Source: a virus
IMG/VR virus record: IMGVR_UViG_3300012347_000452
Coordinates: 32,001-96,000 of that record
Reading direction: 5' to 3' (one strand)
DNA length: 64,000 nucleotides
The notes beneath the pieces were generated by a model. It saw only the letters and a list, made by a program, of their open reading frames with translations, was not told where the DNA came from and made no database searches. Positions 1,619-62,517 of the stretch are shown here, piece by piece (position 1 is the first letter of the stretch; the number at the start of each line of letters is the position of its first letter). The position numbers and the translations under genes are program-made.

Positions 1619-1699
1619 GTCACAAATTTTTGTATAAGGTTTGCTGATTTCTTGCTATACTACATTTAGCACTTTTGCTGAAACATACAAGGAAACACC

Positions 1700-3496: not shown

Positions 3497-3831
3497 TGTT
3501 CACCTATAAGGATAGAGGTATCGGGTATCGGGAAATGGGGGCCGGGGTGTGGGGTCTGGAGCCGATGTATAAGGATTGGTCCCTGGGGTCTGGGGCCTGT
3601 GTAAGGATCGGTCTGGGGAGGTGGAAGACGAGGAAGGGGTCGCTCACGCACCGATAGCTTTTTTCTAAGACTATCGGTTTCTCATAGGTTTTTACAATGT
3701 ATGCGCGATGACCATCACACCGAAAACACCTACCACAAAAAGACACCAATTGAAAGCATTATCTGACATAATTTTCACCTCTTTTTTGACAACCGACTGA
3801 CACTGTAAGGTGTCAGTCAGTCACTCATGAA

Positions 3832-4512
3832 TTACTTATAAAAAGCAATAATTGCTTCAGCTTTGTCGTTTTGCTTGAATGATATCGCATCATTCTTTTT
3901 AGCTTTAATGACATTACAAATGTCTAAAAACCTAAGCATTTGACGCGATGACGACAATTGAGTCGTCGCGGTGTTTTCACTGACATTCAAGAGTGCTCGA
4001 ACATTCTGAACCTGTTCAGTCTCAGAGTAAACGACCGTTTTTGTAAGTGACATCAGACCTGACTTATTTGTCAGTGTTTCATTCTTTGTAAGATTGAAAA
4101 GAATGCTATTTGTATAAGGGTCTAACTCGCTTTTTTGCTTTGTTGCAAGTGCATAAATGCAATCGCGTATTTTGGTTATCACTTTCAACGCTACATAATT
4201 TTCTGAACCTTTAGTACCTGTTTTTATTGCATTTGCAAGAGTTACAAGCGATTCAGGTGAAGTAAAACCGTTTTTAATAACATGTTCGATTTGCACCGCA
4301 AAACGAGCACTTTTTATCTCATTCAAGTCTGAGATTATCGTTTTGCACTTTGCGTTTTCAGGTTGTGCTTTTCTGAACTCGCATGCATCAATGAATGCTT
4401 GCTGAATTGCTTTGTAGTCAACCGCTTGAACCGCGTCAACCGCTTGCACTACTAGTGGTGTCTTGGTGGTCTTGGTGGTCTTGGTGGTCTTGGTGGTGGT
4501 CTTGGTAGACAT
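3832..4512 (-). CDS. Hypothetical AT-rich protein, distant paralog of 16295-17134
   Basis: GAGG RBS before ATG at 4512; TTK repeats at N-terminus; own leader hairpin and TATAAT. Confidence 0.75.
   Translation of the reverse strand: MSTKTTTKTTKTTKTTKTPLVVQAVDAVQAVDYKAIQQAFIDACEFRKAQPENAKCKTIISDLNEIKSARFAVQIEHVIKNGFTSPESLVTLANAIKTGTKGSENYVALKVITKIRDCIYALATKQKSELDPYTNSILFNLTKNETLTNKSGLMSLTKTVVYSETEQVQNVRALLNVSENTATTQLSSSRQMLRFLDICNVIKAKKNDAISFKQNDKAEAIIAFYK
4418..4506. repeat. Two 9-bp coding tandem repeats
   Basis: GTCTTGGTG about x5 (TTK repeats) and a TCAACCGCT-type unit x3 (QAV/DAV repeats). Confidence 0.8.
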
Positions 4513-4900
4513 AGAAACCTCATAAGTTGAATTGTGCAAAATCGCACTTTATGCGCACGAAAACCATGCGCATAAAATGAGACTTTAGATTTTTAAAGAA
4601 CTTCAGTGATGCACCGCGATGAGTGCATGAGTCAAATTATACATGCTTTTTTTGTGCAAACGGTGACTTTTTTCACCTTGCACAAAAAAAATGTGAAAAG
4701 ACCTGATTTTCAGCAAATCGATTTAAACGCGTTTTAAGGTGCTTTTTAGCGGTTTTTGTGCGAGTTGATACAGATGCACCAGACACCTCGAAAAAATCGA
4801 TTGTAGAGCGTTCTGGTGGGTTTGAGTACTTTTGTGCAACGACTCAATTTTCACAAAATAGTTGGTACGGTTTTTGAATGCACGCAAAGTGCATTTTGTG

Positions 4901-5055
4901 ACTGAACAGTATTTTTCCTACTGAACGGTCTGGTTTTCGACTGAACCGACCAGTCGGCAAATAGGCGGTCTGGTTTGCTACTGAACGGTCTGGTTTCTGA
5001 CTGAACTGTTCAGTAGGCGACTGAACGGTCTATTCGGCGACTGCACCGACCAGTA
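4901..5055. repeat. 20-bp-period array of degenerate ACTGAACnGTTCAGT palindromes (iteron-like)
   Basis: ACTGAAC at 4901, 4920, 4940, 4980, 5000, 5020 and ACTGCAC at 5040. Confidence 0.75.
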
Positions 5056-5149
5056 GGCGACCAGGCGGTCGTTCGGCAACTAGGCGGTCGGCAGGCGACC
5101 GAGCGGTCTGCGCACGACCTGCGCTCGTCCTAACCTGCGCGTACTTCGT

Positions 5150-5400
5150 CCTAGCCGTACCCCTACTTCGACCCAGCCGTACTCCTAAACTCGTCCTTAC
5201 TTCGGTCCACCCGTACTCCGAGGCATCCCTAGGCAAGCCCTTGGATCGTTCCTTGGACGCATCCTTGGATGACGCCCTAGGCAAGCCCTTGGATCGCCTC
5301 TTGGATCGTTCCTAGGCTTCGTGTGCCCCTACGCACACTTCGTTTCGCCCATACATCGCCTAACTTCACCCTACCCGTACTCCGAGGCATTCCTAGGGCG
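5150..5400. repeat. CCTWGG / CCGTACTCC spacer array 1
   Basis: CCTWGG at 5228, 5239, 5251, 5263, 5276, 5287, 5311, 5392. Confidence 0.8.
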
Positions 5401-5412
5401 AGAACGATGCTG

Positions 5413-5437
5413 AAAAACCGAGCTTGGGTGCTCGGTT
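5413..5437 (-). terminator. Terminator, AACCGAGC family copy 1
   Basis: AACCGAGC-6 nt-GCTCGGTT plus T run on minus strand, just after the 5444 stop. Confidence 0.8.
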
Positions 5438-5443
5438 CGGTGC

Positions 5444-5761
5444 TTACATGTCCAAGTCAGTCGCGCTCATGTTGGACATCTCAGCAAGCGCTTCACGGTA
5501 GGAGTCGTGTTTGCTGAATGCGATCAAGTCCCCTACCTTGTCGTCAACCGAGTTGGTGATTCCAATGAACCAGAACTCTGTGTTTCCATTTGTGATCTCA
5601 ACGATCGCGTAGTCGTTTCCATCGTTCGCGGTGAATAGGACTCGAACCTGCTCATCTTGAGTTTTCCAAAAGCTCATTAGCTGTCGAAAGATGGAAAGGT
5701 TGTGACCGTAGGGGTTGGTATGAAATGCGTCGCGAAGGTCGCTGAAAGTTTGGAAGCGCAT
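5444..5761 (-). CDS. Hypothetical protein (cassette 2)
   Basis: ORF between its own TATAAT/leader hairpin and terminator. Confidence 0.7.
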   Translation of the reverse strand: MRFQTFSDLRDAFHTNPYGHNLSIFRQLMSFWKTQDEQVRVLFTANDGNDYAIVEITNGNTEFWFIGITNSVDDKVGDLIAFSKHDSYREALAEMSNMSATDLDM

Positions 5762-5769
5762 AGGAGCTT

Positions 5770-5817
5770 TCGGTGAAGTACTACAAAATCGTAGAACCTT
5801 GATTATAACTTCACCGA
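5770..5817 (-). promoter_or_regulatory. TATAAT promoter with CTAC-GATTTT-GTAG leader hairpin inside a 10-bp inverted repeat
   Basis: TATAAT 5802-5807; hairpin 5781-5794; TCGGTGAAGT/ACTTCACCGA arms. Confidence 0.7.
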
Positions 5818-5871
5818 TGTTGAAAAATGTAGGGTGAATTCAAACGCCCGAACGTCCAACGCCTACCGTGG

Positions 5872-5927
5872 CCTAGGAATGCCTAGGCCGAGATTCCTAG
5901 GCCGGTGTCCTTGGCCTGGTTCCTAGG
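5872..5927. repeat. CCTWGG spacer array 2
   Basis: CCTWGG at 5872, 5882, 5896, 5909, 5922. Confidence 0.8.
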
Positions 5928-5944
5928 CCGAGGTTTGTAGTTTG

Positions 5945-5968
5945 AAAACCGAGCATGGACGCTCGGTT
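5945..5968 (-). terminator. Terminator, AACCGAGC family copy 2
   Basis: AACCGAGC-6 nt-GCTCGGTT plus T run. Confidence 0.8.
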
Positions 5969-5978
5969 CTCGGACCGC

Positions 5979-6266
5979 TTATTCTGATCGGACCGCGACG
6001 TTCAGCATCGCTTCAAGTCCGACCTCGTCGAACTTCTTCAACCAGGACGAATACGCTCTGGTAGCAGGACCGTTCATCTCGTTCGGACGCTCACCGCTGA
6101 TCTTTGATCGGACGCTAGAGAGCATCACACCGAGCGGTTTACTCGGACGCTTGTCACAATCGCGTTGGTAAGTAAATCGGACGAACGGTTCATATTTGCA
6201 AACCGCGCTAGGGTTTTCACTTTGACCAACAGCGATGATGGTGATCGGAGATTCTTTCTTGCTCAT
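5979..6266 (-). CDS. Hypothetical protein (cassette 3)
   Basis: ORF coupled to 6263-6472. Confidence 0.65.
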   Translation of the reverse strand: MSKKESPITIIAVGQSENPSAVCKYEPFVRFTYQRDCDKRPSKPLGVMLSSVRSKISGERPNEMNGPATRAYSSWLKKFDEVGLEAMLNVAVRSE

Positions 6267-6472
6267 GCTGCGCTTTCAGGACGTGTCATGGTGAAGCTCT
6301 GACCAACGAGGTCGTAGGGCAAATCTTCACACTCGTCACACAGGTCGGACGCGACATAAGGTAAGACGGACGCTGGTAGCAACGACTCGAAGGTCGGACC
6401 ACCATCTTGCGTGAACACGCAGGCGAAGGTGTCGAAGTGAGAATCGTAGGACTTGATGAGAATATTTAGCAT
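6263..6472 (-). CDS. Hypothetical protein (cassette 3)
   Basis: ORF directly downstream of TATAAT and leader hairpin. Confidence 0.65.
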   Translation of the reverse strand: MLNILIKSYDSHFDTFACVFTQDGGPTFESLLPASVLPYVASDLCDECEDLPYDLVGQSFTMTRPESAA

Positions 6473-6489
6473 CGGACGCTTTCAAAGAA

Positions 6490-6519
6490 TCACTGCAAAA
6501 TCACAGTGAACCGATTATA
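6490..6519 (-). promoter_or_regulatory. TATAAT promoter with CACTGT-GATTTT-GCAGTG leader hairpin
   Basis: TATAAT 6514-6519; hairpin 6490-6509. Confidence 0.7.
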
Positions 6520-6571
6520 ACATCGCGTTATGTGGAAAATAACGGACATTTTCAACCGCCCTATCACCGAC

Positions 6572-6735
6572 CCTAGGCTTTCCCCTTGGATTTCTCCTTG
6601 GACTACGCCTAGGCATCCCTTGGACCGTTCCTAGGCTCGTTCCTAGACTCATGCCTGCTTCTCCGTGGCCGTACTCCTAGGCCCATCCCTGCTTCTTCCT
6701 ACCCGTACTCCTAGGCTTCTCCGTGGCCGTACCCG
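6572..6735. repeat. CCTWGG / CCGTACTCC spacer array 3
   Basis: CCTWGG at 6572, 6584, 6596, 6608, 6618, 6630, 6676, 6710. Confidence 0.8.
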
Positions 6736-6743
6736 AACATGAG

Positions 6744-6765
6744 AAAACCGAGCCTAAACTCGGTT
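6744..6765 (-). terminator. Terminator, AACCGAG family copy 3
   Basis: AACCGAG-6 nt-CTCGGTT plus T run. Confidence 0.75.
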
Positions 6766-6777
6766 CATTGGAAGCGA

Positions 6778-7008
6778 TTAGGCTTCTGCGTAATCTTCTT
6801 CGGACGCATTGAGCGCCCACAGAGCAGCGTCAAGCCCTGGTTTCGCATACCGAACGAGTCCAACCTGGCCCTCAAACGCGACCAGGTATTTCCAACCTCC
6901 GTCGTTCAGAGGAACCGCACACAGGGTCTCTCCCGTGTTGAGGTCCACAGTTGTGCCCATCTGAGCTTGCGTGAGTTGGGCGGGAGTGAGGGCGATGATT
7001 TTGTTCAT
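6778..7008 (-). CDS. Hypothetical protein (cassette 4)
   Basis: AGGAAA RBS; ends next to the terminator. Confidence 0.65.
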   Translation of the reverse strand: MNKIIALTPAQLTQAQMGTTVDLNTGETLCAVPLNDGGWKYLVAFEGQVGLVRYAKPGLDAALWALNASEEDYAEA

Positions 7009-7028
7009 GGATGTTTCCTGGTGATTTG

Positions 7029-7265
7029 TTAGGCGTTCAAGGTGGGCACGTACATGTCACTCACGGTGATTCCCCATGAGACGAAGTGACCGTGACAGAG
7101 GACTTGCTCCAACCAATTGATTGCCTCCTCATCTGTGAAAAGATGGAAGACGTTGAAGATGCGCTCGGGCGCTTCCGCTTTTACCGCGTAGGGTAGTGAC
7201 TCATGGAACATGGACTTGAGAACATTGCGGGCTTTGTCCGCATCGCAGGTGGAAGAGAAGGACAT
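7029..7265 (-). CDS. Hypothetical protein (cassette 4)
   Basis: AAGGAG RBS before ATG at 7265. Confidence 0.7.
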   Translation of the reverse strand: MSFSSTCDADKARNVLKSMFHESLPYAVKAEAPERIFNVFHLFTDEEAINWLEQVLCHGHFVSWGITVSDMYVPTLNA

Positions 7266-7291
7266 GGTGGTCTCCTTATATAAGAAGGGTG

Positions 7292-7336
7292 CAGTGCAAA
7301 ATCGCACTGACTCAAATATAACCAATGAACTCAGGA
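7292..7336 (-). promoter_or_regulatory. Promoter TCCTGAGTTC-N6-TATATT with CAGTGC-GATTTT-GCACTG leader hairpin
   Basis: Motifs read directly; same register as 14371-14433 and 50439-50480. Confidence 0.7.
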
Positions 7337-7340
7337 CAAA

Positions 7341-7770
7341 CTTATAGGAACGAGGGAACCTTATAGGGAATCTTATAGGGGGAAGGACGACGCTCTCCTA
7401 GGCATCCCACGGACGAATCCATGCTTTTCCCCTAGGGAGATACTTTCCTAGGCCGGTGCCTTGGAACGAGCCTAGGGAATGACGCCTAGGGATGCCGAGG
7501 ACGACGTGCCCACACTTCTTCCTACCCGTACTCCAAATCAGGCCATACAGGCGTCGCCCCGTACTCCGAGGCTCGTTCTCCCTAGGGAAGAAGCAGGATG
7601 GCTCGGGCGGCGAGATTTTTTCCTGTAAGGTTTTGGGAAAGTGAGGATGAAATGATGAGGGGAATACTTCGCCCACACATTGGTTCCACATTGGTTCCAC
7701 ATTGACCCTTTCTCCGTAGCCTGACTCTCTTCCCTACTCCTCTCATCCATAGGCTTCTCCCTAGGCTCAT
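7341..7770. repeat. Non-coding repeat block: CTTATAGG x3, CCTWGG array 4, CACATTGGTTC tandem repeat
   Basis: CTTATAGG 7341/7360/7372; CCTWGG 7397-7765; 11-bp tandem 7676-7707. Confidence 0.7.
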
Positions 7771-8229
7771 CCTTCTCCGTATGGTTGTTCGTCTCCGTGG
7801 CCTGGTCCTTCTTGTTCGTGTTGGTGACGTTGATCTTCCTATTCGTCGTTACTGTCCTCTTCCCGTACTCCGTGATCTTGGTTGGGATTGTTCGGGCTTT
7901 TTCTCTCCGACGTATATCTGTATGTAGTAGGAGTAGAGACTCCTATTGTTCTTTGTTCGGGGAATCGTTCGGGCTTTCTTCTCTCAGGCTGTTGTCGGGG
8001 TCGAGCTCTTTAAACGCGATTTGAGCGCTTTCCGGTCGTTGGTGGTGTCAGCGGTCATCTTGAGTGTCTGGCACGCTTCTATGGTCGTTCTGATGCGCTG
8101 GCCAAGGTTCTTTTTCGGTGGTTGGTTCTGAGGTTGCTTATAGGTAGGGAACCTTATAGATAGGCTATTCTTTGGTTAGTAGTCGGGACTTAGTGCCTTC
8201 CTGTTAGCGTTAGCGGAAAAGTCCTTTAA

Positions 8230-8242
8230 AATCAACAACTTA
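8230..8242 (+). promoter_or_regulatory. IHF-binding consensus site
   Basis: AATCAACAACTTA matches WATCAANNNNTTR; flanked by CCTTATAG repeats. Confidence 0.55.
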
Positions 8243-8268
8243 CGTTCCTAGGCCTGAACCTTATAGGG

Positions 8269-8293
8269 AAAAGCCTCTGCAATGAGAGGCTTT
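8269..8293 (-). terminator. Terminator (possibly bidirectional)
   Basis: AAAGCCTCT-6 nt-AGAGGCTTT downstream of the 8314 stop. Confidence 0.7.
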
Positions 8294-8313
8294 CAAGGGT
8301 TTTGGCCTGATTC

Positions 8314-8769
8314 TTATACTTTGGCCTGAGCCATTTTGAGCATCATCGTGGCCGTGTCGATCACGGCACTGACGGCCTTTTCAGCTTTGTCTGCCTGTTG
8401 CTGCGCCAAGAGAGAATAGGCGCCCTCGAGTGCCTTATCGTGAACCCGCTGGATGGTGACGAGTTCGGCGATCGCCATGCCGGTGACTGCCTCGATGTTG
8501 TTCTTTCCGAAGATGCGGGCCAGGGCATCGACGCTCTCCTCGTTATGACTCTCCCAGGGGTCAGCCGAGCAATTGATCTCCTTCAGTTGCGCCTCCGAGA
8601 ACAGACTGCCTACCGCGCAGTTGTTGCCTGACTTGTACTGATAGGCGCAATCGAGCTTGTCGCCCTTGTTGACGTTCGGTCCGATCTTGCCCTGCTTGGC
8701 CTGGTCGATGATGTGTTGGAGCGATTCGATCTTGGATCGGCATGAGACTCCATTGATGATGTGTGGCAT
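8314..8769 (-). CDS. Hypothetical phage protein
   Basis: AAGGAGAA RBS; CAY...CAVG.L motif common in phage small proteins. Confidence 0.75.
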   Translation of the reverse strand: MPHIINGVSCRSKIESLQHIIDQAKQGKIGPNVNKGDKLDCAYQYKSGNNCAVGSLFSEAQLKEINCSADPWESHNEESVDALARIFGKNNIEAVTGMAIAELVTIQRVHDKALEGAYSLLAQQQADKAEKAVSAVIDTATMMLKMAQAKV

Positions 8770-8797
8770 TCTGTTTTCTCCTTCAGTCGTGACTTAG

Positions 8798-9229
8798 TTA
8801 CTTGGATTGCATTTCGAGCGCCTTTTCGAGCCAATGGATCATCGGCTCGGGGGTGTTGAGTCCATTGGTGTTGTCGCGAAAGGCGTACCAGGGCGCAATG
8901 TCCTCATCGTCGCGTTCGTTGTCGCAGGGCGTCTTGCCTCTTACGATAGACAGTGGGCAGGGCTCGCACCGGTCCAAATGTTCGTCTTTGTGCGAGAGGA
9001 AGTGATGGCAAAGGGAGCAAGTGGTTCCATTTATGCTCAGACCGTCCATCTGGTCATCGTCGTTGATGCCAACAACATCCGCGAACGTGCTGACTCGGAC
9101 GTTGTGCTTCTTCAGGTTCTCGGGTTTGAGGCCCTGCCACTTGGTCAGGCTGTGCTGGACGGCATCATCCGGTGTGGTGTCCTCGACCGGCTTGGGATAG
9201 AACTCGTCGATCCATGTCTTGACTGTCAT
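8798..9229 (-). CDS. Hypothetical Cys-rich phage protein
   Basis: CSLC, CEPCPL; coupled ORF. Confidence 0.75.
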   Translation of the reverse strand: MTVKTWIDEFYPKPVEDTTPDDAVQHSLTKWQGLKPENLKKHNVRVSTFADVVGINDDDQMDGLSINGTTCSLCHHFLSHKDEHLDRCEPCPLSIVRGKTPCDNERDDEDIAPWYAFRDNTNGLNTPEPMIHWLEKALEMQSK

Positions 9230-9459
9230 CGGGCTTCTCCTTGTGATTGTTTGAGGGCTCGCCGGAGCTCGGCGAGGTTGTTCTTGTAGGCTCGAGGGTC
9301 GGTCTCGCTCTTGGTCAGGAAGAACGCCCGGTCGATGCCTTTGAAGACCACCTTGAAGTGACTTCCATTGCGCGGCTCGATGGACTCGACCTCGAACCCA
9401 TCGCGCTTGTATAGGGCGAACTGCTCACGCAAACGCCGGTGGATGATCAAGGCGCTCAT
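9226..9459 (-). CDS. HicA-like small protein
   Basis: GFEVESIEPRNGSHFKVVF resembles the HicA GSH motif; no adjacent hicB seen. Confidence 0.5.
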   Translation of the reverse strand: MSALIIHRRLREQFALYKRDGFEVESIEPRNGSHFKVVFKGIDRAFFLTKSETDPRAYKNNLAELRRALKQSQGEAR

Positions 9460-9779
9460 CCTTGAGCCAATCGGTAGCCCTCACCGACGATGCGGAAGGT
9501 CGTGATCGTCCGGTCGGCGTTCTCACTGTGGATGAAAAGCATAGGCTGGCGGCCTGTGAAGTACTCGATCGCGTCCATGTAGACGCCGACGCCGATCTTG
9601 TCGTTGGTGTGGATCTCGATCAAGGCGTTGATCGGGTTCTTCCAGTCAGCACGATCCTGAACCTGCTCGAAGGCAGCTTCCAGAATCTTGTGTCGAGCAT
9701 TGGACACATTGACGGTGCGTTCGGGGGCGCTGCTGGCGATGCCCCGAAGATAGTCGGTACGCTTGTCGTCGGAGCTCAT
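9456..9779 (-). CDS. Hypothetical protein
   Basis: ATGA-coupled ORF, GAGGAG RBS. Confidence 0.7.
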   Translation of the reverse strand: MSSDDKRTDYLRGIASSAPERTVNVSNARHKILEAAFEQVQDRADWKNPINALIEIHTNDKIGVGVYMDAIEYFTGRQPMLFIHSENADRTITTFRIVGEGYRLAQG

Positions 9780-9979
9780 TCGGCATTCTCCTCAATGTGC
9801 TTGACGCATTCAATCCATGCAGCTTCTTCGCTTTCGGACGTGTCGTGGTCTTGGAAGTCATTGGTGACAGAGTTCATCCAGCGGTACTCACCGGCGAATT
9901 CGGCACCGTACTCCTGGCCCATGTCCTCGACATAGAAACCCTGGGAGATTAGTTTGGCTTTGGTTTCCTGGAAGGTCAT
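9776..9979 (-). CDS. Hypothetical protein
   Basis: AAGGAG RBS before ATG 9979. Confidence 0.7.
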   Translation of the reverse strand: MTFQETKAKLISQGFYVEDMGQEYGAEFAGEYRWMNSVTNDFQDHDTSESEEAAWIECVKHIEENAE

Positions 9980-10170
9980 CGCGTTACTCCTTTGTGTGTT
10001 TGAGCGATAACGTATTATCTCGACCGCACTGAGGAGAACTAATCGTTCCAATCACTTTGCCTTGCAGAATCCCATGCCGCTCGTTGGCAAGGTCTCTCAT
10101 GGCCTGGGTGATGAACCCAGGCTGATTCACGAGGTCGGCCCAGCTCCGACCGTTGCGTATGGCTTTGGGG

Positions 10171-10401
10171 TCACACAGGCCCATGTGTCACCCCTTGCAG
10201 CTTCGACAGGTAGTGCTCCTTCACCCAGTCGATGTCCAACCGGGTCATCGGCCGGTCAGGCGTATCGCCCTTGCGTCCGTGACTGCTGACCATCCAAGTC
10301 CTGATGTTGTAGTACCAGAACTGGTGATGGGTTTTGTTCCAAGCGAGAATGGTCTGGTGAATCTCCAGAATGTCGCCCTCAAGTTTGAAGCTCAGTGCCA
10401 T
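10171..10401 (-). CDS. Hypothetical protein
   Basis: AAGGAG RBS. Confidence 0.6.
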   Translation of the reverse strand: MALSFKLEGDILEIHQTILAWNKTHHQFWYYNIRTWMVSSHGRKGDTPDRPMTRLDIDWVKEHYLSKLQGVTHGPV

Positions 10402-10404
10402 GTG

Positions 10405-10650
10405 TTATCTCCTTGCGATCCAGCCGACCGGTTCCTGATCCTCGCTCTCAAGACGATGGAACTCGGCGTCGGCCAGGAATTGGTCCTGAAAGCAGAAGCG
10501 CCTGCCCCAGCCATCGGGACTCACGTCCATGTAGATGGCTCGGGTGAACATCAGGTCGCCGATGGCGATGATGGAGCCATCAGGCAATAGCCTGACCTCC
10601 CGGTAGTCGCCCAGGCTCTCGATGTGGGCCAAGAGCTCGGAGTCGGTCAT
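10405..10650 (-). CDS. Hypothetical protein
   Basis: AAGGAA RBS, coupled ORF. Confidence 0.65.
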   Translation of the reverse strand: MTDSELLAHIESLGDYREVRLLPDGSIIAIGDLMFTRAIYMDVSPDGWGRRFCFQDQFLADAEFHRLESEDQEPVGWIARR

Positions 10651-10823
10651 GCCGCTTCCTTGAGGTTGGTCTTGCGGAACCACTTATCGCCGATGAAGCG
10701 AATCCAGTCCTGGTTGGTCCACAGGGCTGTGCTCACGGGCGGCACCTGCATCCAATAGCCCCAGCCAGTCTCCTGGCCATTCAAGGTGTCGATCTTTTCC
10801 TGCTCTGTCGGTTGTGGCTTCAT
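10647..10823 (-). CDS. Hypothetical protein
   Basis: AGGAGA RBS. Confidence 0.6.
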   Translation of the reverse strand: MKPQPTEQEKIDTLNGQETGWGYWMQVPPVSTALWTNQDWIRFIGDKWFRKTNLKEAA

Positions 10824-10836
10824 GGGGTTCTCCTGG

Positions 10837-11019
10837 TTAGCCGTTGGGGAAGTCGTTGAGTTGTTGGAGGTAGCCTTCGCGCACCAGTCGGCGATCATCG
10901 AAGGGCATGGATTCGAGGTCGTTCAGGGGAATGAGAGCCTGAGCCATCAGTCGTCCGTAGTCCCGAAGTTGTTCGCGCCCTTGTTCGAGCGCGGCGTTGA
11001 TGGCGTCGGCGTAACTCAT
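10837..11019 (-). CDS. Hypothetical protein
   Basis: TGATG coupling with upstream ORF. Confidence 0.55.
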   Translation of the reverse strand: MSYADAINAALEQGREQLRDYGRLMAQALIPLNDLESMPFDDRRLVREGYLQQLNDFPNG

Positions 11020-11354
11020 CAGCCTCTCCTCATGGTTGAAATCTCGATGGCCTCATCCTGCGAGAAGACGGGCACGCTGTTGGACTTGTGCATGACGCCG
11101 ATGCCAAGCAGCTTGGTGCCGGTGTACTTCATGCCCTGGATCGGTTTGGTGCCACCGTTGCAGCCCGTGTCCACCGACTGATGCTCCCTGCCCGTCGAGC
11201 GCCCTGGTGGCGTCGTGAGCTTGGGAGTGTGATCGATGGCGCTTTGAGCGTGTGACCTGCGGGCGAACTTGGGCACTGAGGCCCACTTCTGTTGCAGGGC
11301 GGCGAACGAGGCGATGGCGTCACGCTCGGCGCGGGTGGGGTTCTTCTTGCTCAT
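11019..11354 (-). CDS. Conserved phage protein
   Basis: C-terminal KYTG..LLGIG.MHKSN.VPVF motif recurrent in large phages. Confidence 0.7.
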   Translation of the reverse strand: MSKKNPTRAERDAIASFAALQQKWASVPKFARRSHAQSAIDHTPKLTTPPGRSTGREHQSVDTGCNGGTKPIQGMKYTGTKLLGIGVMHKSNSVPVFSQDEAIEISTMRRG

Positions 11355-11686
11355 GAAGCCTCCAACACGCTGAAGTGATTGGACGGCCACCCGTAGAAGA
11401 ACCAGTTCTCGCCCTTGAGCGTGAAGGTGCCACGCCCATCAGGCTCGATCTGGATGAAAGGCTCGCGCCCGGTGAGCCAGGTGCTCTTGAGTCGATCCAA
11501 GAACTGCTTGGGCTCGGGGTACGCCTTAGCGTGGTAGAGGTGGGCCACCGCCTTGTGCAGCCTGGTGGCCAGCTCTTCAAACTTGGACGCGGTGAGGTTG
11601 CCGTCATACGGCAGGATGTACGCGACCCGGTCCATGCCATGAGTCAGGTGCGTCATCAGGCACTTGTTAAACGCCCGAGAAGCCAT
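11351..11686 (-). CDS. Hypothetical protein
   Basis: Coupled ORF; start uncertain. Confidence 0.6.
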   Translation of the reverse strand: MASRAFNKCLMTHLTHGMDRVAYILPYDGNLTASKFEELATRLHKAVAHLYHAKAYPEPKQFLDRLKSTWLTGREPFIQIEPDGRGTFTLKGENWFFYGWPSNHFSVLEAS

Positions 11687-11852
11687 GATCTTCCTCCTGG
11701 ATCATCTGAATGTGGACGCGGTGCCCGTGATTGTTGAACTCGTTCTCCAAGTAGTCGTAGAGTTCGGCCACTGCCTCAGCAGAGCCGGCAGGATGCTCAC
11801 TGCCCTCCATCGGCTCGATCAGGTCGAGTAGGAGATATTTGCGTTTTGCCAT
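11667..11852 (-). CDS. Hypothetical protein
   Basis: GAGGAA RBS. Confidence 0.6.
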   Translation of the reverse strand: MAKRKYLLLDLIEPMEGSEHPAGSAEAVAELYDYLENEFNNHGHRVHIQMIQEEDHGFSGV

Positions 11853-11865
11853 GATGGTTTCCTCG

Positions 11866-11997
11866 TCAGTTGAGTTTGGCCAAGCGGGTCTGCTCGGCAG
11901 TGGTTGGATCGAGGCCCAGGGCCCCGGAGAAGACCGCCAGTTGGTTCCGGCGTTCGTAGATGGCGACCATGTCGCCCTGGATGAGTAGAAGTCTCAT
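11866..11997 (-). CDS. Small hypothetical protein (43 aa)
   Basis: ORF MRLLLIQGD... just downstream of the promoter at 12024-12045. Confidence 0.45.
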   Translation of the reverse strand: MRLLLIQGDMVAIYERRNQLAVFSGALGLDPTTAEQTRLAKLN

Positions 11998-12119
11998 GGA
12001 GTGCTTTCTGTTGCTGATGTCTTATTGTCAGCGGTGACTGATGGACAATCAACCGCTGAAGCAGGGTCATCGCTTGTGTCCGAACACAATCCCATACGCC
12101 ATGCAAAAGAGCAGGACCG

Positions 12120-12374
12120 TCATGCAAGCTCCTGTTGGCCACCGGTGGGCTTCTCGGCCGCCAGGCGCACCCAGTGGTCGGCAGGCAGGTGAGCGAGCTC
12201 CTCTGGCAGATAGCTGCCCACATGCGCCTTCAAGCACTTCGGGCACACCTTGTCGCGGAACTCAGGCTTGTCGATCGGGGCGTAGATGTAGTGAACGCCC
12301 TCGTCGCCATCGGCTCGTTCGCCACAGATCGAGACTCCGGCAAAAACGCCGGTCATCGTGAGGTGGATTGACAT
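12120..12374 (-). CDS. Hypothetical protein
   Basis: AAGGAG RBS; Cys motifs. Confidence 0.6.
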   Translation of the reverse strand: MSIHLTMTGVFAGVSICGERADGDEGVHYIYAPIDKPEFRDKVCPKCLKAHVGSYLPEELAHLPADHWVRLAAEKPTGGQQELA

Positions 12375-12604
12375 GCTTGCTCCTTTTCCCATTGGTGAAC
12401 TTCGGGGGTGCGAATGCCGATGTAGTCGTAGACCCAATCGGTGTTCTGCGGGTCGCGATTCCATTTGGCGATCGCTTTCTTGGCTTCAGCCTCGATCATC
12501 CGAATGCCCATGAAGGCCATGTCGGGGATTTGGGCGTCGTTGAAGGTGCCGAGATAGACCGTGTTGGTCGGGAGGTGCCTCCTCCAGTAGTGAAGTTGGA
12601 TCAC
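12353..12604 (-). CDS. Hypothetical protein
   Basis: GTGA-coupled, GGAG RBS. Confidence 0.55.
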   Translation of the reverse strand: MIQLHYWRRHLPTNTVYLGTFNDAQIPDMAFMGIRMIEAEAKKAIAKWNRDPQNTDWVYDYIGIRTPEVHQWEKEQACQSTSR

Positions 12605-12903
12605 AGTTGCTCCCAGTCGGTGTGGTTCTGTTGGCGGTACTCCATCGAGGTGCATCCGAACTGCTCGGCCCAGTCGAGTGGTGCAAAGGCGTGATCGGCG
12701 TCGGCTTCCATGATGTCGCCGCACTTGCCTGTGAAATACACCTCGCCATCGTCATCGAGTAGGCGAAACTCGTAGGGCAGCTTTGCGGCCAGGGCCTGGA
12801 GCTCGGCGAGTGCGGGGAACTTGTGGCAGTTGTGGAACTTGCCCTCGTACCGCCCTGTGTACTGCGTCTGGTGGTCGGGGTCGTGAGTGATGATCCAGTT
12901 CAT
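12601..12903 (-). CDS. Hypothetical phage protein
   Basis: FRLLDDDGEVYF motif; GGAG RBS before ATG 12903. Confidence 0.7.
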   Translation of the reverse strand: MNWIITHDPDHQTQYTGRYEGKFHNCHKFPALAELQALAAKLPYEFRLLDDDGEVYFTGKCGDIMEADADHAFAPLDWAEQFGCTSMEYRQQNHTDWEQL

Positions 12904-12919
12904 AAATCGCTCCGTGTCA

Positions 12920-12984
12920 TGTTCAAAATCGAACAATTCAATTGTCACAACCGAGTGTTGGACTTGCAACACTCAGTCGTGACA
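12920..12984 (-). promoter_or_regulatory. Promoter TTGCAA-17-GACAAT, leader hairpin TGTTC-GATTTT-GAACA, operator at 12971-12984
   Basis: Motifs read directly. Confidence 0.7.
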
Positions 12985-12991
12985 TAGCCAA

Positions 12992-13717
12992 TCAATCGCC
13001 CGAATCGTCGTCCTCTTCGTCGTACTCGGCCATGTAGATGATGATGGCTTCGATGGCGCGCCCTTCTTCGTCGCGTCGGACGAGGCAGTCGTAGGAGCCG
13101 TCACCCCACCCCGTACTCGACACACAGCCAACAGGGTGCACACCCCACTGCCCTTGCGTGTCGCAAGTCAGGGCGCACACCTCGTCGTAGAAATTGTCCT
13201 TGACCGCCTCCGAGCCGCACATCTGATCGAACAGGGCGTAGTCGAAGAAGCCGGCCTGGCCCGAGTCCACACCCACATGGATGTCGGAGTCGACCCATGT
13301 GGAGTCAAACTCTGCCTCATGGTCGAAGTGGCTCTGGGTGTTCTCGTGGCGAATGTGCAGGTAGGCCACGCGACCGATGTGCGCCTCATAGTCGGCTCGG
13401 CGCTTGGCCAAGTCTTGCTCATCCATGTCCGCGATGATGCGACGAGTCTTGGCGGTTTCGGTGTCCAGCCCTTCGACAGCCGCTCGGGCTTTGGCGATGC
13501 GTTCTTCGCTCTCCTTGAGCGAGTCGAGCATCCACTGCTGTTCTTCAGGCGGTTTGCGGTAGCCGACGTGGGCCTGCCAGATGCCGTTCTTGACGTTGTC
13601 CAAGGTGCCCGCGCACCAAGTCTCCATGTCATAGCACGGGTCCGTGACCCGCAGAGCGCCCGATGACACCGCAAAGGCGTTGGGCGACGAGGTGCTGTCA
13701 ATTTTGGAGAGTTTCAT
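12992..13717 (-). CDS. DUF4241-like protein
   Basis: VTDPCY, VGVDSGQAGFFD, STGWGDGSY motifs. Confidence 0.7.
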   Translation of the reverse strand: MKLSKIDSTSSPNAFAVSSGALRVTDPCYDMETWCAGTLDNVKNGIWQAHVGYRKPPEEQQWMLDSLKESEERIAKARAAVEGLDTETAKTRRIIADMDEQDLAKRRADYEAHIGRVAYLHIRHENTQSHFDHEAEFDSTWVDSDIHVGVDSGQAGFFDYALFDQMCGSEAVKDNFYDEVCALTCDTQGQWGVHPVGCVSSTGWGDGSYDCLVRRDEEGRAIEAIIIYMAEYDEEDDDSGD

Positions 13718-13938
13718 TTTTGTTCCTTGCTGATGATGACCATGCCAAACAGCAGATCGATCAGGACACTTGAGCTGCCGATCGAGATGCCAAGTTTGTA
13801 GTTCCAGCCCGCGCCGAAGCGCGAGCCTTGTGAGTTAAGCAGAGCCTTCGGGCCACGTTCGGTCTTGTGAGGGAACCATCCGTAGCCCTCCTGCCAGGGC
13901 CAACGTCTGGCCCTGATGGTGAAGTTGCCGAGCTTCAC
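13714..13938 (-). CDS. Hypothetical protein
   Basis: Coupled ORF. Confidence 0.55.
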   Translation of the reverse strand: MKLGNFTIRARRWPWQEGYGWFPHKTERGPKALLNSQGSRFGAGWNYKLGISIGSSSVLIDLLFGMVIISKEQK

Positions 13939-13941
13939 GGC

Positions 13942-14352
13942 CTACCACCAACTGTCATACAGACAGGCTTTGCCTTCGCCGATGGCGGCGCGGGCCTTGC
14001 CGACGAACTCGAGGACCGAGGCTTGGTCATCCTCGTCGAACAGCTCATCGCCGCCAAAGAAGAAGCCTGCCGTCGGTGTCAGGGCCTTAGCCTTCGCCAG
14101 CGACTCCAAGACATCGAGGTCTTCAGGCATGAGGCGCACCGTGGTGCAGTTGAAGGACGGCATGGTTCCGCCCTTCTTGCGATAGAGCTGCTCCATCCAG
14201 CCATGCAGGTGGTTGAACTTGCGCCAGTAGGCGAAGTAGATGTCCACACCCTCGACGGGATGGCCGTTGTCGAACAGCTTGTCTCCAAGGTCCACTTGCT
14301 GGTCGCCAACCAGCTCCGCAGGTGCGGTGTAGGCGTACATATCGAGTCCCAT
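13942..14352 (-). CDS. Conserved phage protein
   Basis: MGLDMY...YWRKFNHLHGWM...GFFFG...Y.SWW family pattern; AAGGAG RBS. Confidence 0.8.
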   Translation of the reverse strand: MGLDMYAYTAPAELVGDQQVDLGDKLFDNGHPVEGVDIYFAYWRKFNHLHGWMEQLYRKKGGTMPSFNCTTVRLMPEDLDVLESLAKAKALTPTAGFFFGGDELFDEDDQASVLEFVGKARAAIGEGKACLYDSWW

Positions 14353-14370
14353 TCGGGTTCTCCTTGTTGC

Positions 14371-14433
14371 TTGTCAGAATCGACAAAATGAATTGTCACA
14401 GGTGAACTCAGGATATACCAGTCACCCGTGACA
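14371..14433 (-). promoter_or_regulatory. Promoter TCCTGAGTTC-N6-GACAAT, leader hairpin TTGTC-GATTCT-GACAA, operator 14420-14433
   Basis: Motifs read directly. Confidence 0.7.
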
Positions 14434-14449
14434 GATGCCCATCAGCCGA

Positions 14450-15148
14450 TCAACGGGCGTCGAGGAGCGTGACCAGCTTGTTCAGGGTCTCGTTGGCTTC
14501 GCTGACCTTGGCTTCGATCTTCTTGGACTTGGTCTTGACCGAGCCCAAGTCCTCGATCTCCTTCTCGACCTTCTTGATGGCGTCGATCAGTTGGTCGTCG
14601 GACATGGTGGTCACGTCCACGTTGTTGATGTAGGTCTTGTTGGCGATGGTGATTTGGTTGGACACGGGTTGCTCCTGGATAGGTTGAGAGAGGGGTTGAG
14701 AAGTCAGGGTGTCAACGGCTTCGCAAAGCTCTTTGACTTCCTGCAAATGTTGGCCGAGAGCGATCTCGGCACATGGATTCGTCGCTGGTGGGCGACGCTG
14801 AACGCCGTTTGGCGTGTAGTTGTAGCCTACGACGTTAAGGCGTTGAATTCGCACTTGGAACAAGATGCAATCGTCTTTAGCCCAAGTCGAGTCGGGCCCC
14901 TGACCGTCCATACGCCACCACATTTCGAGAAAGAGGAATGCCCATTCTTCGGCGTGGAAAATGTCAGGCGTGTTCGCGATCCGCTTGATTTTCTTGACGA
15001 ACTGTTCCACCAGCACCGTGAACTGGCCGAAGTTGCCGCGCTTCGCCTCATGTCTGGCCTTCATGACGAACTCATGTTCGTTTTCCAAAGCCCAGATGTA
15101 CTGCGTGGTGATGTGATCCACTCGGATCGGTTCCTGTCGTGCTGTCAT
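14450..15148 (-). CDS. Hypothetical protein with C-terminal coiled coil
   Basis: Long ORF with AAGGAG RBS. Confidence 0.7.
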   Translation of the reverse strand: MTARQEPIRVDHITTQYIWALENEHEFVMKARHEAKRGNFGQFTVLVEQFVKKIKRIANTPDIFHAEEWAFLFLEMWWRMDGQGPDSTWAKDDCILFQVRIQRLNVVGYNYTPNGVQRRPPATNPCAEIALGQHLQEVKELCEAVDTLTSQPLSQPIQEQPVSNQITIANKTYINNVDVTTMSDDQLIDAIKKVEKEIEDLGSVKTKSKKIEAKVSEANETLNKLVTLLDAR

Positions 15149-15486
15149 TTCATGTTCACTCCTTCATGGTTGGTTGCGATGAATGAATTACACCAGCGCA
15201 ATCTCGGACTTTGACCGTGCCTGCGCATCTTCCCTATCACTTGCCCTGCTCTCGCTTCACCCCTCGGGCAGATCAATTTAAACGACAGGCCTGCCAGCCG
15301 TTGGTGTCGGTGGTGCTCAGACCTTCACCACCTCTCGGAAAGCGCTCTACGGTCGTTCTAGTGGCAGGAGCGCGGTGCTCTGGTCGGTGTAATGACTCAT
15401 AAACCGAGCATTACATGGACTAATGCCACATTTATGATGCAAATCCTGGACATTGCGTCCCGAGTCCTTGGACCGTGGACAGGGTG

Positions 15487-15511
15487 AAAAATCAGGGCGC
15501 GAGGCCCTGAT
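15487..15511 (-). terminator. Rho-independent terminator
   Basis: ATCAGGGC-loop-GCCCTGAT followed by T run on minus strand. Confidence 0.75.
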
Positions 15512-15516
15512 CGGTA

Positions 15517-15852
15517 TCACCACACGTTGGCGGCTGAGGTTGATGGCCTATGTGCCGCAGCGGGCTTGGGCGGGGCCGCTTCACCCACGATGTTGAGCAG
15601 GTTGGGCGAGACGCGCCAAGTGGTCGTATTCAGGCGCTTGCGAGTGATCGAATCCACCTCGTAGCCTGAGACGGTCTTGGTGTTGATGCGCTCCACATAG
15701 AGGTAGCGCTTGGCGTTTGTCCGGTCGAGAAACCAGCCGATGGCACCGCGACGCAGGCTGTTGTCCTTGCGCTTGGCCAATGTGTCGATGCACTTGTCTC
15801 GGATGGCCTGAAGCGCCTCCGAAGACATCGACTCCAGCTTGGTTAGATCCAT
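15517..15852 (-). CDS. Hypothetical protein
   Basis: AAGGAG RBS. Confidence 0.7.
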   Translation of the reverse strand: MDLTKLESMSSEALQAIRDKCIDTLAKRKDNSLRRGAIGWFLDRTNAKRYLYVERINTKTVSGYEVDSITRKRLNTTTWRVSPNLLNIVGEAAPPKPAAAHRPSTSAANVW

Positions 15853-15853
15853 T

Positions 15854-16222
15854 TCAATCTCCTTTGCGTTTAAATTCGGCGATCATCCGCCGTGCCCATT
15901 GCTTGCGGTGCTTCTGGACGTTCTCATGCGTGATGTCACGAGCCAAAACATTGCCCATGTACAGAAGCCAGGATTCGAGGCTGTTGTACGGGACCAAGCG
16001 TTGCTCGATCATGTCTTTGACCTCCTTGATCCTTTGCTCCACGCGCAGTTCGGCGCGATGCTCGATGAACATCCAGTTCTTGTGTCCACCCCGAGCAGCT
16101 CGCATGATGGCGTGACAGAGGTATTCCTCCTTTTTTGCCTGACACACCTCGCCATAGTCTTTGCCATTCCAGAGGTAAGGAAGGGCCTGACGGATGAGGT
16201 CTGAAGTTTTAAGGGTTTGCAT
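15854..16222 (-). CDS. Hypothetical protein
   Basis: Abuts next ORF; start approximate. Confidence 0.65.
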   Translation of the reverse strand: MQTLKTSDLIRQALPYLWNGKDYGEVCQAKKEEYLCHAIMRAARGGHKNWMFIEHRAELRVEQRIKEVKDMIEQRLVPYNSLESWLLYMGNVLARDITHENVQKHRKQWARRMIAEFKRKGD

Positions 16223-50379: not shown

Positions 50380-50438
50380 GAGACTCTCCAGAAAAATGTT
50401 GAAAATTCAACGGGTTACAAAAAATTTGCGATTGATGA

Positions 50439-59641: not shown

Positions 59642-59714
59642 GGTGTTCCTTGACGAAAAGTCGTCTGAATTGAATTGTAGAAAGTGATGCGCGGGTCATA
59701 AGCGACCCTACGCA

Positions 59715-62226: not shown

Positions 62227-62517
62227 TCAAGCCGCTTTGGTCTGGTCGATGGGGTTGGTCCAGAAGCTCTCGATGGCGTGCTTGAAGATCACGAAGACCT
62301 GATAGGTGCCGTCCTTGTGATCGACCTTCAGGCTGATGGTGTACTTGTCGAAGTGCTTGATCGTGCCCTTCATCGGGGGCGCACCGGGGTCGGTCATGAG
62401 GGCCACATTGACGACTGCACCGGCAGCTTCAAGTGCTTTCAGAAAGGCCTCGTGACCCTTCAATGCGGGGGTCTTCTTGACGATCGGGGTCTTGGGACGG
62501 GAGAGGGAGTCGGACAT
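62227..62517 (-). CDS. hfq: Hfq-like Sm RNA chaperone
   Basis: FL..L, GTIKHFDKYTI.L (Sm1), IFKHAI (Sm2). Confidence 0.8.
   Translation of the reverse strand: MSDSLSRPKTPIVKKTPALKGHEAFLKALEAAGAVVNVALMTDPGAPPMKGTIKHFDKYTISLKVDHKDGTYQVFVIFKHAIESFWTNPIDQTKAA

Follow-up and report, generated by a model that had tools for sequence, protein, structure and literature searches.

The DNA analysed here, referred to as the window, is a stretch of 64,000 nucleotides (nt), bases 32001-96000 of the virus record IMGVR_UViG_3300012347_000452, and it carries a family of short hairpins with the loop GATTTT in the leaders of several transcription units. Coordinates refer to the window unless marked as genome coordinates; the whole genome, a single record, has 107,050 base pairs (bp) and 60% G+C. 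Between 3800 and 15200 the genes run on the minus strand. The part from 3800 to 7400 is a series of small self-contained units with repeat-filled spacers between them, each unit consisting of a promoter, a leader hairpin, one or two open reading frames (ORFs) without family matches and an intrinsic terminator. The analysis establishes directly how the hairpins are built, how enriched they are, where they lie with respect to -10 boxes and start codons, and how far related genomes conserve them.

An initial annotation of this DNA had listed six such hairpins. All six are present where it had placed them and are read on the minus (sense) strand, and a seventh was found on the plus strand. Site s1 (4534-4547, GTGC GATTTT GCAC) lies in the leader of a 226-aa gene (3832-4512, minus strand); it is internal to that leader, about 35 nt in, behind a 15-bp hairpin at ~4545-4579. 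Site s2 (5781-5794, CTAC GATTTT GTAG) follows the -10 box TATAAT at 5802-5807 and precedes the gene at 5444-5761, whose unit ends in a terminator at ~5407-5440. Site s3 (6490-6509, TCACTGT GATTTT GCAGTGA) has a U.G pair beside the loop and lies 3' of an extended -10 element, TGTTATAAT, with its TATAAT hexamer at 6514-6519; genes 6263-6472 and 5979-6266 follow. Site s4 (7292-7309, CAGTGC GATTTT GCACTG), with the -10 box TATATT at 7315-7320, precedes genes 7029-7265 and 6778-7008. Site s5 (12920-12935, TGTTC GATTTT GAACA) heads an operon running from 12903 to 8314 with a terminator at ~8270-8292, and its -10 box, GACAAT at 12941-12946, sits within an operator-like inverted repeat. Site s6 (14370-14387, TTTGTC GATTCT GACAAG) has the -10 box GACAAT at 14392-14397 and precedes the gene at 13942-14352. 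The new site, s7 (4583-4598, plus strand, CTTTA GATTTT TAAAG), lies 3' of a TAAAAT/CATAAA -10 box and opens a unit of ~110 nt closed by a bidirectional terminator at ~4650-4693. In every unit, the plus-strand one included, GATTTT is the loop sequence on the strand that carries the downstream gene.

The number of these hairpins is far above random expectation. When GATTYT flanked by at least four perfect pairs was sought, six copies were found in the whole genome and all six lie inside 4534-14386. They correspond to five sites of the initial annotation plus s7; s3 is detected only when G.U pairs are allowed because its U.G pair adjoins the loop. In 200 dinucleotide shuffles the same pattern occurred 0.34 ± 0.57 times (maximum 3) against the 6 observed, and with G.U pairs allowed 1.9 ± 1.4 times against 9 observed, so similar hairpins are not equally common in random sequence. 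An unbiased scan of the 107-kb genome, in which a copy counted as stemmed if it had at least four Watson-Crick flanking pairs, placed GATTTT at the top of all 4096 six-base loops, with 5 of its 29 copies stemmed against 0.15 expected (Bonferroni p ~0.002). Chance is excluded as the source of the hairpins. A wider count, of any hairpin 3' of any -10-like hexamer, gave 20.5% compared with 17-18% in shuffles, and this test is too noisy.

The element is also found in other genomes. A 108-kb relative, G001, reached through the gene that follows s6 (77% protein identity), carries four copies with the stems ACTGA/TCAGT, ATCACTC/GAGTGAT, ATCGGTT/GACCGAT and GTC/GAC, each of them between a -10 box and a start codon. 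Additional copies, with the loops GATTTT, GATGTT, GATTCT or GGTTTT, occur in contigs G002, G003, G004, L105, L106, L107, L108 and L114, and at least nine related metagenomic phage contigs contain the element. A covariance model built from four genomes, a search that the initial annotation had called for, recovered copies on which it had not been trained in L105, L106, L107, L108 and L114, each directly 3' of a -10 box. In G006, G007 and G008, complete genomes of more distant relatives, the same model gave no convincing match. In the Acinetobacter baumannii phage-plasmid pABTJ2 the best score was 16.8 bits, for a 3-bp stem abutting an ATG, which is not a copy. The element is thus a feature of one sub-clade of uncultured phages with 47-60% G+C. 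The lack of a cultured carrier is deduced from protein searches against cultured phages with two of the genes: the 226-aa protein had no match, and the only match of a 136-aa protein was in Limnohabitans phage DC31 (42%). A nucleotide search of a phage collection with window positions 4000-9000 likewise gave no match.

All 14 relatives have a hairpin in the leader of the 226-aa gene that begins 5-8 nt after the -10 box, often at an A at position 7 or 8. Since this holds regardless of the loop, the deeply conserved trait is a hairpin at the predicted first transcribed bases, and the GAUUUU loop is a trait of the sub-clade. In two relatives (L114 2199-2270 and L106 ~2270-2330) this leader contains a second hairpin followed by a T-run (ACCGC-AAA-GCGGT-TTTTTT), a possible attenuator where the present genome has the GAUUUU hairpin.

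Wider scans were made with the pattern TATAAT-N3-9-BTGCGATTTTGCAV. Viral contigs gave 9 matches, including three microvirus contigs, and our rough estimate of the number expected by chance is similar. Bacterial genomes gave 117 matches over all phyla, mostly in AT-rich genomes and with no host-lineage signal; many of them have stems of only 3-4 bp or are terminators. As these numbers are near chance, we claim no spread beyond the clade. The three microvirus contigs (L138, L139 and L140, 4.4-4.5 kb) have the order terminator-TATAAT-N7-GTGC GATTTT GCAC-GGAG-ATG, a layout like that seen here, and given the near-expected scan counts these copies may be due to chance.

Pairing was examined in an alignment of 28 copies, drawn from 10 contigs. 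Each of the four innermost pairs can form in 26 or 27 of these copies and occurs as 4-5 pair types, and when the 3' partner was slid by 1-3 columns only 25-49% of the cells were paired, compared with 84% in the true register. The earlier statement that the stems differ while pairing is kept is therefore upheld by the larger alignment and its register control, albeit partly through ascertainment. Because the pairing of the inner positions is in part an artefact of how copies were selected, we place the weight of evidence on enrichment, position, orientation and relatives. The orthologous leaders of the 226-aa gene provide independent support for pairing, since their stems differ: GTGC/GCAC in the present genome, ATCGGTT/GACCGAT in G001, CTCGATT/GATCGAG in L108, and ACTGCAGC/GCTACAGT in G003.

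In the best fold the stem is followed by a conserved G.U pair, rarely A-U, which closes a tetraloop, AUUU. The first and sixth bases of the hexaloop can pair as G.U in 24 of the 28 copies and as A-U in the other 4, and are unpaired in none. RNAfold returned the G.U-closed AUUU tetraloop in most copies, with energies from -1.8 to -9.5 kcal/mol, and the hairpin persists in 9 of 11 folds of whole leaders. Three more G.U pairs adjoin the loop, in copies s3, G1c and L108. All these G.U pairs are possible only on the sense strand, a pattern to which one C.A mismatch in G003 runs contrary. Taken together, the data support the hairpin as a genuine structural element: its arms covary, and its loop is conserved and specific to one strand.

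The strand preference bears on the suggestion in the initial annotation that the repeat could act as a DNA cruciform. With arms down to 4 bp, G.U pairs on the sense strand only and a loop that is always sense-oriented, a cruciform is unlikely. A related explanation is a promoter of the phage N4 type, in which a cruciform or single-strand hairpin is read by a phage RNA polymerase. The early promoters of N4 likewise have hairpins with covarying arms tied to early transcription; inverted repeats do lie near the transcription units here, and the 15-30 nt of leader downstream of the hairpin would still be workable. However, the N4 hairpins have stems of 5-7 bp and 3-base loops, lie upstream of the start and require a giant virion RNA polymerase, an enzyme that was not found encoded here. 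In the present genome the loop has 6 bases (or 4), not 3, the hairpin lies downstream of the -10 box, good TATAAT or extended -10 boxes stand at a fixed distance upstream, and extrusion would need longer arms than the 4-5 bp seen. A T7-like RNA polymerase was not detected, PF00940 being absent in a search whose control matched nowhere. The ORFs of at least 700 aa that lie in structural regions beyond the window (1911, 1500 and 953 aa) encode a tail fibre, a tape measure and either a fibre or a decoration protein, with no virion polymerase among them; the large ORFs within the window match a DNA polymerase, a ribonucleotide reductase and a CobT-like protein. We regard an N4-type promoter as highly improbable, no phage polymerase having been found by the PF00940 search, which lacked a working control, or among these large ORFs.

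The position of the hairpins relative to the promoters is narrowly defined. The distance from the -10 box to the loop is 11 nt at s2, s3 and s4 and 10 nt at s5 and s6, which agrees with the spacing of 10-11 nt reported earlier for five of six sites, s1 being the exception. In this genome and its relatives a script placed the -10 box in 24 copies. The distance is 11 nt in 9 copies scored in this way, irrespective of stem length, and in four further copies if, in our reading, TGTAAT is taken as the -10 box; the other copies have 9-14 nt, except for outliers at 7 and 16 nt in which the choice of hexamer is doubtful. This TGTAAT, which has a G where the second base is normally essential, stands in the place of TATAAT at L089 11709, L094 4625, and L105 2130 and 2607. 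In 11 of the 24 copies a TGn precedes the TATAAT-like hexamer. Transcription by sigma-70 usually starts at the seventh base after the -10 hexamer; this base is an A in 15 of 24 copies and falls within the 5' arm in most. Since the predicted start falls in the 5' arm, the hairpin is best read as an RNA element at the extreme 5' end of the message. The initial annotation had put the loop of five of its six sites at the very 5' end, which fits these predicted starts; s1 is internal to its leader.

The same spacing has to be weighed for a signal acting at the DNA level. In this explanation GATTTT, at about +5 to +10, would be a -10-like element at which the polymerase makes a sigma-dependent pause, or a signal in the initial transcribed sequence that affects promoter escape, or the repeat would be a decayed or alternative form of an operator, GTCA-N4-TGAC, that is common in these genomes. 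It is the loop, not the start of the stem, that keeps a fixed 11 nt from the -10 box, the outer stem pairs fall upstream of the expected start, and GATTTT has the A at position 2 and T at position 6 of a -10-like element. The GTCA-N4-TGAC palindrome occupies the same place, 3-9 nt after the -10 box, at many other promoters in all modules of this genome and G001 (for example genome 57271-57286, 63054-67 and 98320-31; G001 61093, 63557 and 12725), and its fixed arms and variable centre suggest that a single dimeric repressor uses it as its operator. If transcribed, this palindrome would also form a 5' hairpin. Site s6 reads GTCg-ATTC-TGAC, a one-mismatch copy of the operator; its orthologues (TGTC GATTTT GACA) are also one mismatch away, and the G004 site is a perfect operator, GTCA CTTT TGAC. 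We therefore regard s6 as a hybrid and not as clean support for the hairpin class.

The remaining sites do not follow s6. In a comparison with the half-sites GTCA/TGAC, s1-s5 and s7 are far from a match and only s6 and its orthologues come within one mismatch; most copies match only ~3 of the 8 half-site bases. The two classes share a place directly after the -10 box and differ in what is kept: the operator has fixed arms around a free centre, as expected of duplex DNA read by a dimer; the GAUUUU hairpins have complementary arms of varying sequence around a constant centre, as expected of a single strand that folds. A duplex reading leaves the differing yet complementary arms unexplained, the GGTTTT variants of L105 and L114 lack the essential A, and the conserved G.U pair has meaning only in a single strand. 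A DNA-level signal is unlikely on this evidence.

We favour, with somewhat better than even confidence, an RNA hairpin at the 5' terminus of early mRNAs, which shields them and is also a common recognition tag. The hairpin would be transcribed from the first bases of host-type early promoters (sigma-70-like, often with an extended -10), and would consist of a stem of 4-7 bp free in sequence, usually ending in C-G, then a G.U (rarely A-U) pair closing the AUUU loop, the whole appearing as GAUUUU in hexaloop notation. From the predicted transcription starts we infer action at the RNA level: with the starting base within the 5' arm, the mRNA would have no single-stranded 5' end. Structures at the 5' end stabilise mRNA, and both RppH and RNase E require single-stranded 5' ends (PMC3997798). 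A 5'-terminal stem-loop would thus hinder RppH and the 5'-end-dependent entry of RNase E, and the short mRNAs of the early cassettes would be stabilised. The ompA and papA leader stabilisers (Emory, Bouvet and Belasco 1992, as cited in PMC3997798) are likewise hairpins at the extreme 5' end with few or no unpaired bases; their stem sequence is free, as it is here, and the same block to RppH and RNase E would be expected. Known stabilisers of this kind, however, are not known to require a particular loop, while here the loop and its closing G.U are conserved across genomes, at least seven units of a single genome carry the element, and one copy is internal.

These differences are the reason for the second part of the proposal. 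The loop is constant while the stems drift, and s1 is internal; both make it probable that the hairpin has a further role as a common tag. End protection alone explains neither the kept loop nor the internal s1, from which we infer a shared reader: one trans-acting factor, of phage or host origin, may set the stability or translation of all early units jointly.

Several observations weigh against this interpretation. Simple end protection needs no conserved loop, and s1 is not 5'-terminal. Some stems are weak (s7, -1.8 kcal/mol; G1d, -2.1 kcal/mol). Several 7-bp DNA stems begin at the 5th base after the -10 box, upstream of the normal sigma-70 start, so that their outer pairs would lie outside the RNA, and since the fixed distance is that of the loop and not of the stem start, a promoter-linked DNA signal is equally possible as far as spacing is concerned. 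In more distant relatives the hairpin of the 226-aa gene leader has unrelated loops (GCGGT, ACGGT, AAAAA and AACT), and the GAUUUU loop is thus not universally required. Finally, a reader was sought by phyletic profile (present in G000 and G001, absent from G006-G008), and the 117 ORFs returned are non-discriminating.

A further reading, which we put forward tentatively and at clearly less than even chances, takes the hairpin as the operator of an RNA-level regulon, in which a dedicated reader of the G.U-closed loop switches the whole early class. Switching could be by stability, translation or terminator read-through, and the reader could be Hfq-like or a small early protein. The MS2 and PP7 coat-protein hairpins and the sites of T4 RegA are comparable in that they too consist of a short hairpin or sequence close to where ribosomes bind, and one protein reads specific loop bases and shuts off several early mRNAs. 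Those sites, however, overlap the start codon or Shine-Dalgarno sequence, whereas 15-30 nt separate the end of the present hairpin from the start codon downstream.

Hfq itself had been named as a candidate ligand, and an Hfq-like gene is indeed present (62227-62517, minus strand; 96 aa; Pfam Hfq, E = 7e-9, over the cut-off). On this explanation Hfq of the phage or the host would bind the loop AUUUU and chaperone or protect the early mRNAs. The proximal face of Hfq binds AUUUUUG-type runs, which the loop sequence suits, but this site favours free U-rich 3' ends over internal sequence and disfavours G (PMC4152361), and the AUUUU run here is internal and held in a tightly constrained loop of four to six bases. 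An Hfq-like gene also accompanies the motif in G001. However, Hfq-like genes occur in G008 and, weakly, in G006, both without the motif, and none was found in G007; the presence of the gene among relatives does not track the motif. The protein also gave no match at E <= 0.01 to the solved Hfq chains in the PDB. We consider Hfq a fair candidate by sequence but, on the whole, an unlikely reader.

The last of the readings at the RNA level, also raised in the initial annotation, is a nut/boxB-like antitermination tag, on which a small phage protein bound to the nascent loop would allow read-through of the cassette terminators and delayed-early expression. As with boxB of the lambda nut sites, a small hairpin on nascent early RNA lies near early promoters, here within a few bases, and precedes terminators; a clear intrinsic terminator closes every cassette, the loop is conserved while the stem varies, and the genome encodes many small uncharacterised early proteins. 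Lambda boxB, however, has a conserved stem, a GNRA-like pentaloop (GAAAA/GAAGA) and a boxA partner, and there are two nut sites per genome, compared with variable stems, a GAUUUU loop (or G.U plus AUUU) and at least seven copies here. A search of the window for boxA (CGCTCTTTA-like) as GCTCTTTA with at most one mismatch gave 27 matches against 25 expected, none of them beside a hairpin on the sense strand. The Pfam family N36, which is short and poorly conserved and whose control matched one genome below cut-off, was not found, and PF06530, the one Q family searched, had no match in the genome while its control was found in E. coli. Moreover, each cassette has its own promoter, so read-through is unnecessary for expression. 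With no GNRA-like pentaloop, no boxA and neither an N nor a Q family protein detected, the boxB-like interpretation is unlikely.

Two other ideas were rejected. Some stems (CACTGC, CUAC) recall type I-F and V-A repeats of clustered regularly interspaced short palindromic repeat (CRISPR) arrays, but mimicry of such repeats was discarded, as the stems are not the same from copy to copy and none of the Rfam CRISPR-DR models matched. A pseudoknot between the UUUU of the loop and a GAAAG motif at the ribosome site is not general, several copies being without GAAAG. A search of window positions 3500-16000 against Rfam at E <= 5 gave no relevant match, the three matches obtained being chance small nucleolar RNAs. 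Our literature search found no paper joining GAUUUU, hairpin and phage, and papers on early promoters and conserved hairpins (N4, T4, HK022 put, cappable-seq) do not describe the element. The element is uncatalogued, and 5'-leader hairpins as a kind are already known.

Two or three weaker variants lie elsewhere in the window. At 1665-1682 (plus strand) TTTAGC ACTTTT GCTGAA, with an A-U pair and a CUUU loop, stands 3 nt 3' of TATACT and upstream of the gene at 1700-2017; in the orthologous leaders of relatives the stem is kept with other U-rich loops. At 59652-59665 (minus strand) GACG ACTTTT CGTC stands 8 nt 3' of TACAAT and 10 nt before an ATG. The third variant, which is weak, is GTTG AATTTT CAAC at 50398-50411 (minus strand), upstream of an ATG without a clear promoter.

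The surroundings of the hairpins have features of their own. The 226-aa protein, with an N-terminal TTK repeat and assignment to PHROG 4202/9272, may be a replication or partition protein; its gene is kept beside a divergent promoter and iteron region in 14 relatives. In the window about nine iterons, GACTGAACGGTCTGGTTT-like and phased at 20 bp, lie at 4895-5090, adjoining the divergent s1/s7 promoters. This array looks like a plasmid-type origin or partition site, consistent with the phage-plasmid relatives. The s7 unit (4581-4700, plus strand), directed toward the iterons, contains the s7 hairpin, a second hairpin and the long bidirectional terminator (minimum free energy -31.8 kcal/mol, z = -3.7) and is a candidate small RNA of 110 nt. 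The spacers between cassettes (5040-5400, 5850-5930, 6560-6740 and 7340-7600) are non-transcribed and dense in CCTAGG/CCTTGG (CCWWGG), CCGTACTCC and CTTATAGG repeats, with spacers of like kind in G001; they could be protein-binding arrays, insulators or decoy sites.

Many early cassettes have GAAAG 5-8 nt 5' of the ATG in place of a GGAG-type Shine-Dalgarno sequence, often as TTC-N3-6-GAAAG (5762-5780 and 6473-6489; L086 7019-7036; the leaders of L105, L106 and L114), which may be a distinct class of ribosome site of early genes. The s5 leader includes a six-codon mini-ORF (12898-12918, minus strand; ATG ACA CGG AGC GAT TTA TGA) whose stop overlaps the true start codon (ATGA), which suggests translational coupling.

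The record also encodes a DnaE-type polymerase, a ribonucleotide reductase, CobT/CobS-like proteins, a ligase, a DnaB-like helicase and an integrase, together with a lambda-J-like tail fibre and a tape measure. Its polymerase is ~60% identical to that of ~110-kb A. baumannii phage-plasmids such as pABTJ2, 44% identical to that of Rhizobium phages of the RHEph10 group, and 36-42% identical to those of Pseudomonas phage nickie, Stenotrophomonas phages and SSU5-like Klebsiella/Salmonella phage-plasmids.

In this clade a shared leader tag marks the immediate-early units, and the early genes of large uncultured phages are poorly characterised. The hairpin and the GTCA-N4-TGAC palindrome, which occupy the same promoter position in one genome, are a natural example in which a DNA signal and an RNA signal can be separated. 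At ~20 nt the element is a compact test object for how phage mRNAs are protected or switched off, and it could find use as a portable module for 5' stabilisation or control. With a dedicated reader, should there be one, it would form a new phage RNA-protein control pair, and if the element proves to be the operator of a regulon, ~107-kb phages related to phage-plasmids would have in it a new counterpart to lambda N/boxB or T4 RegA.

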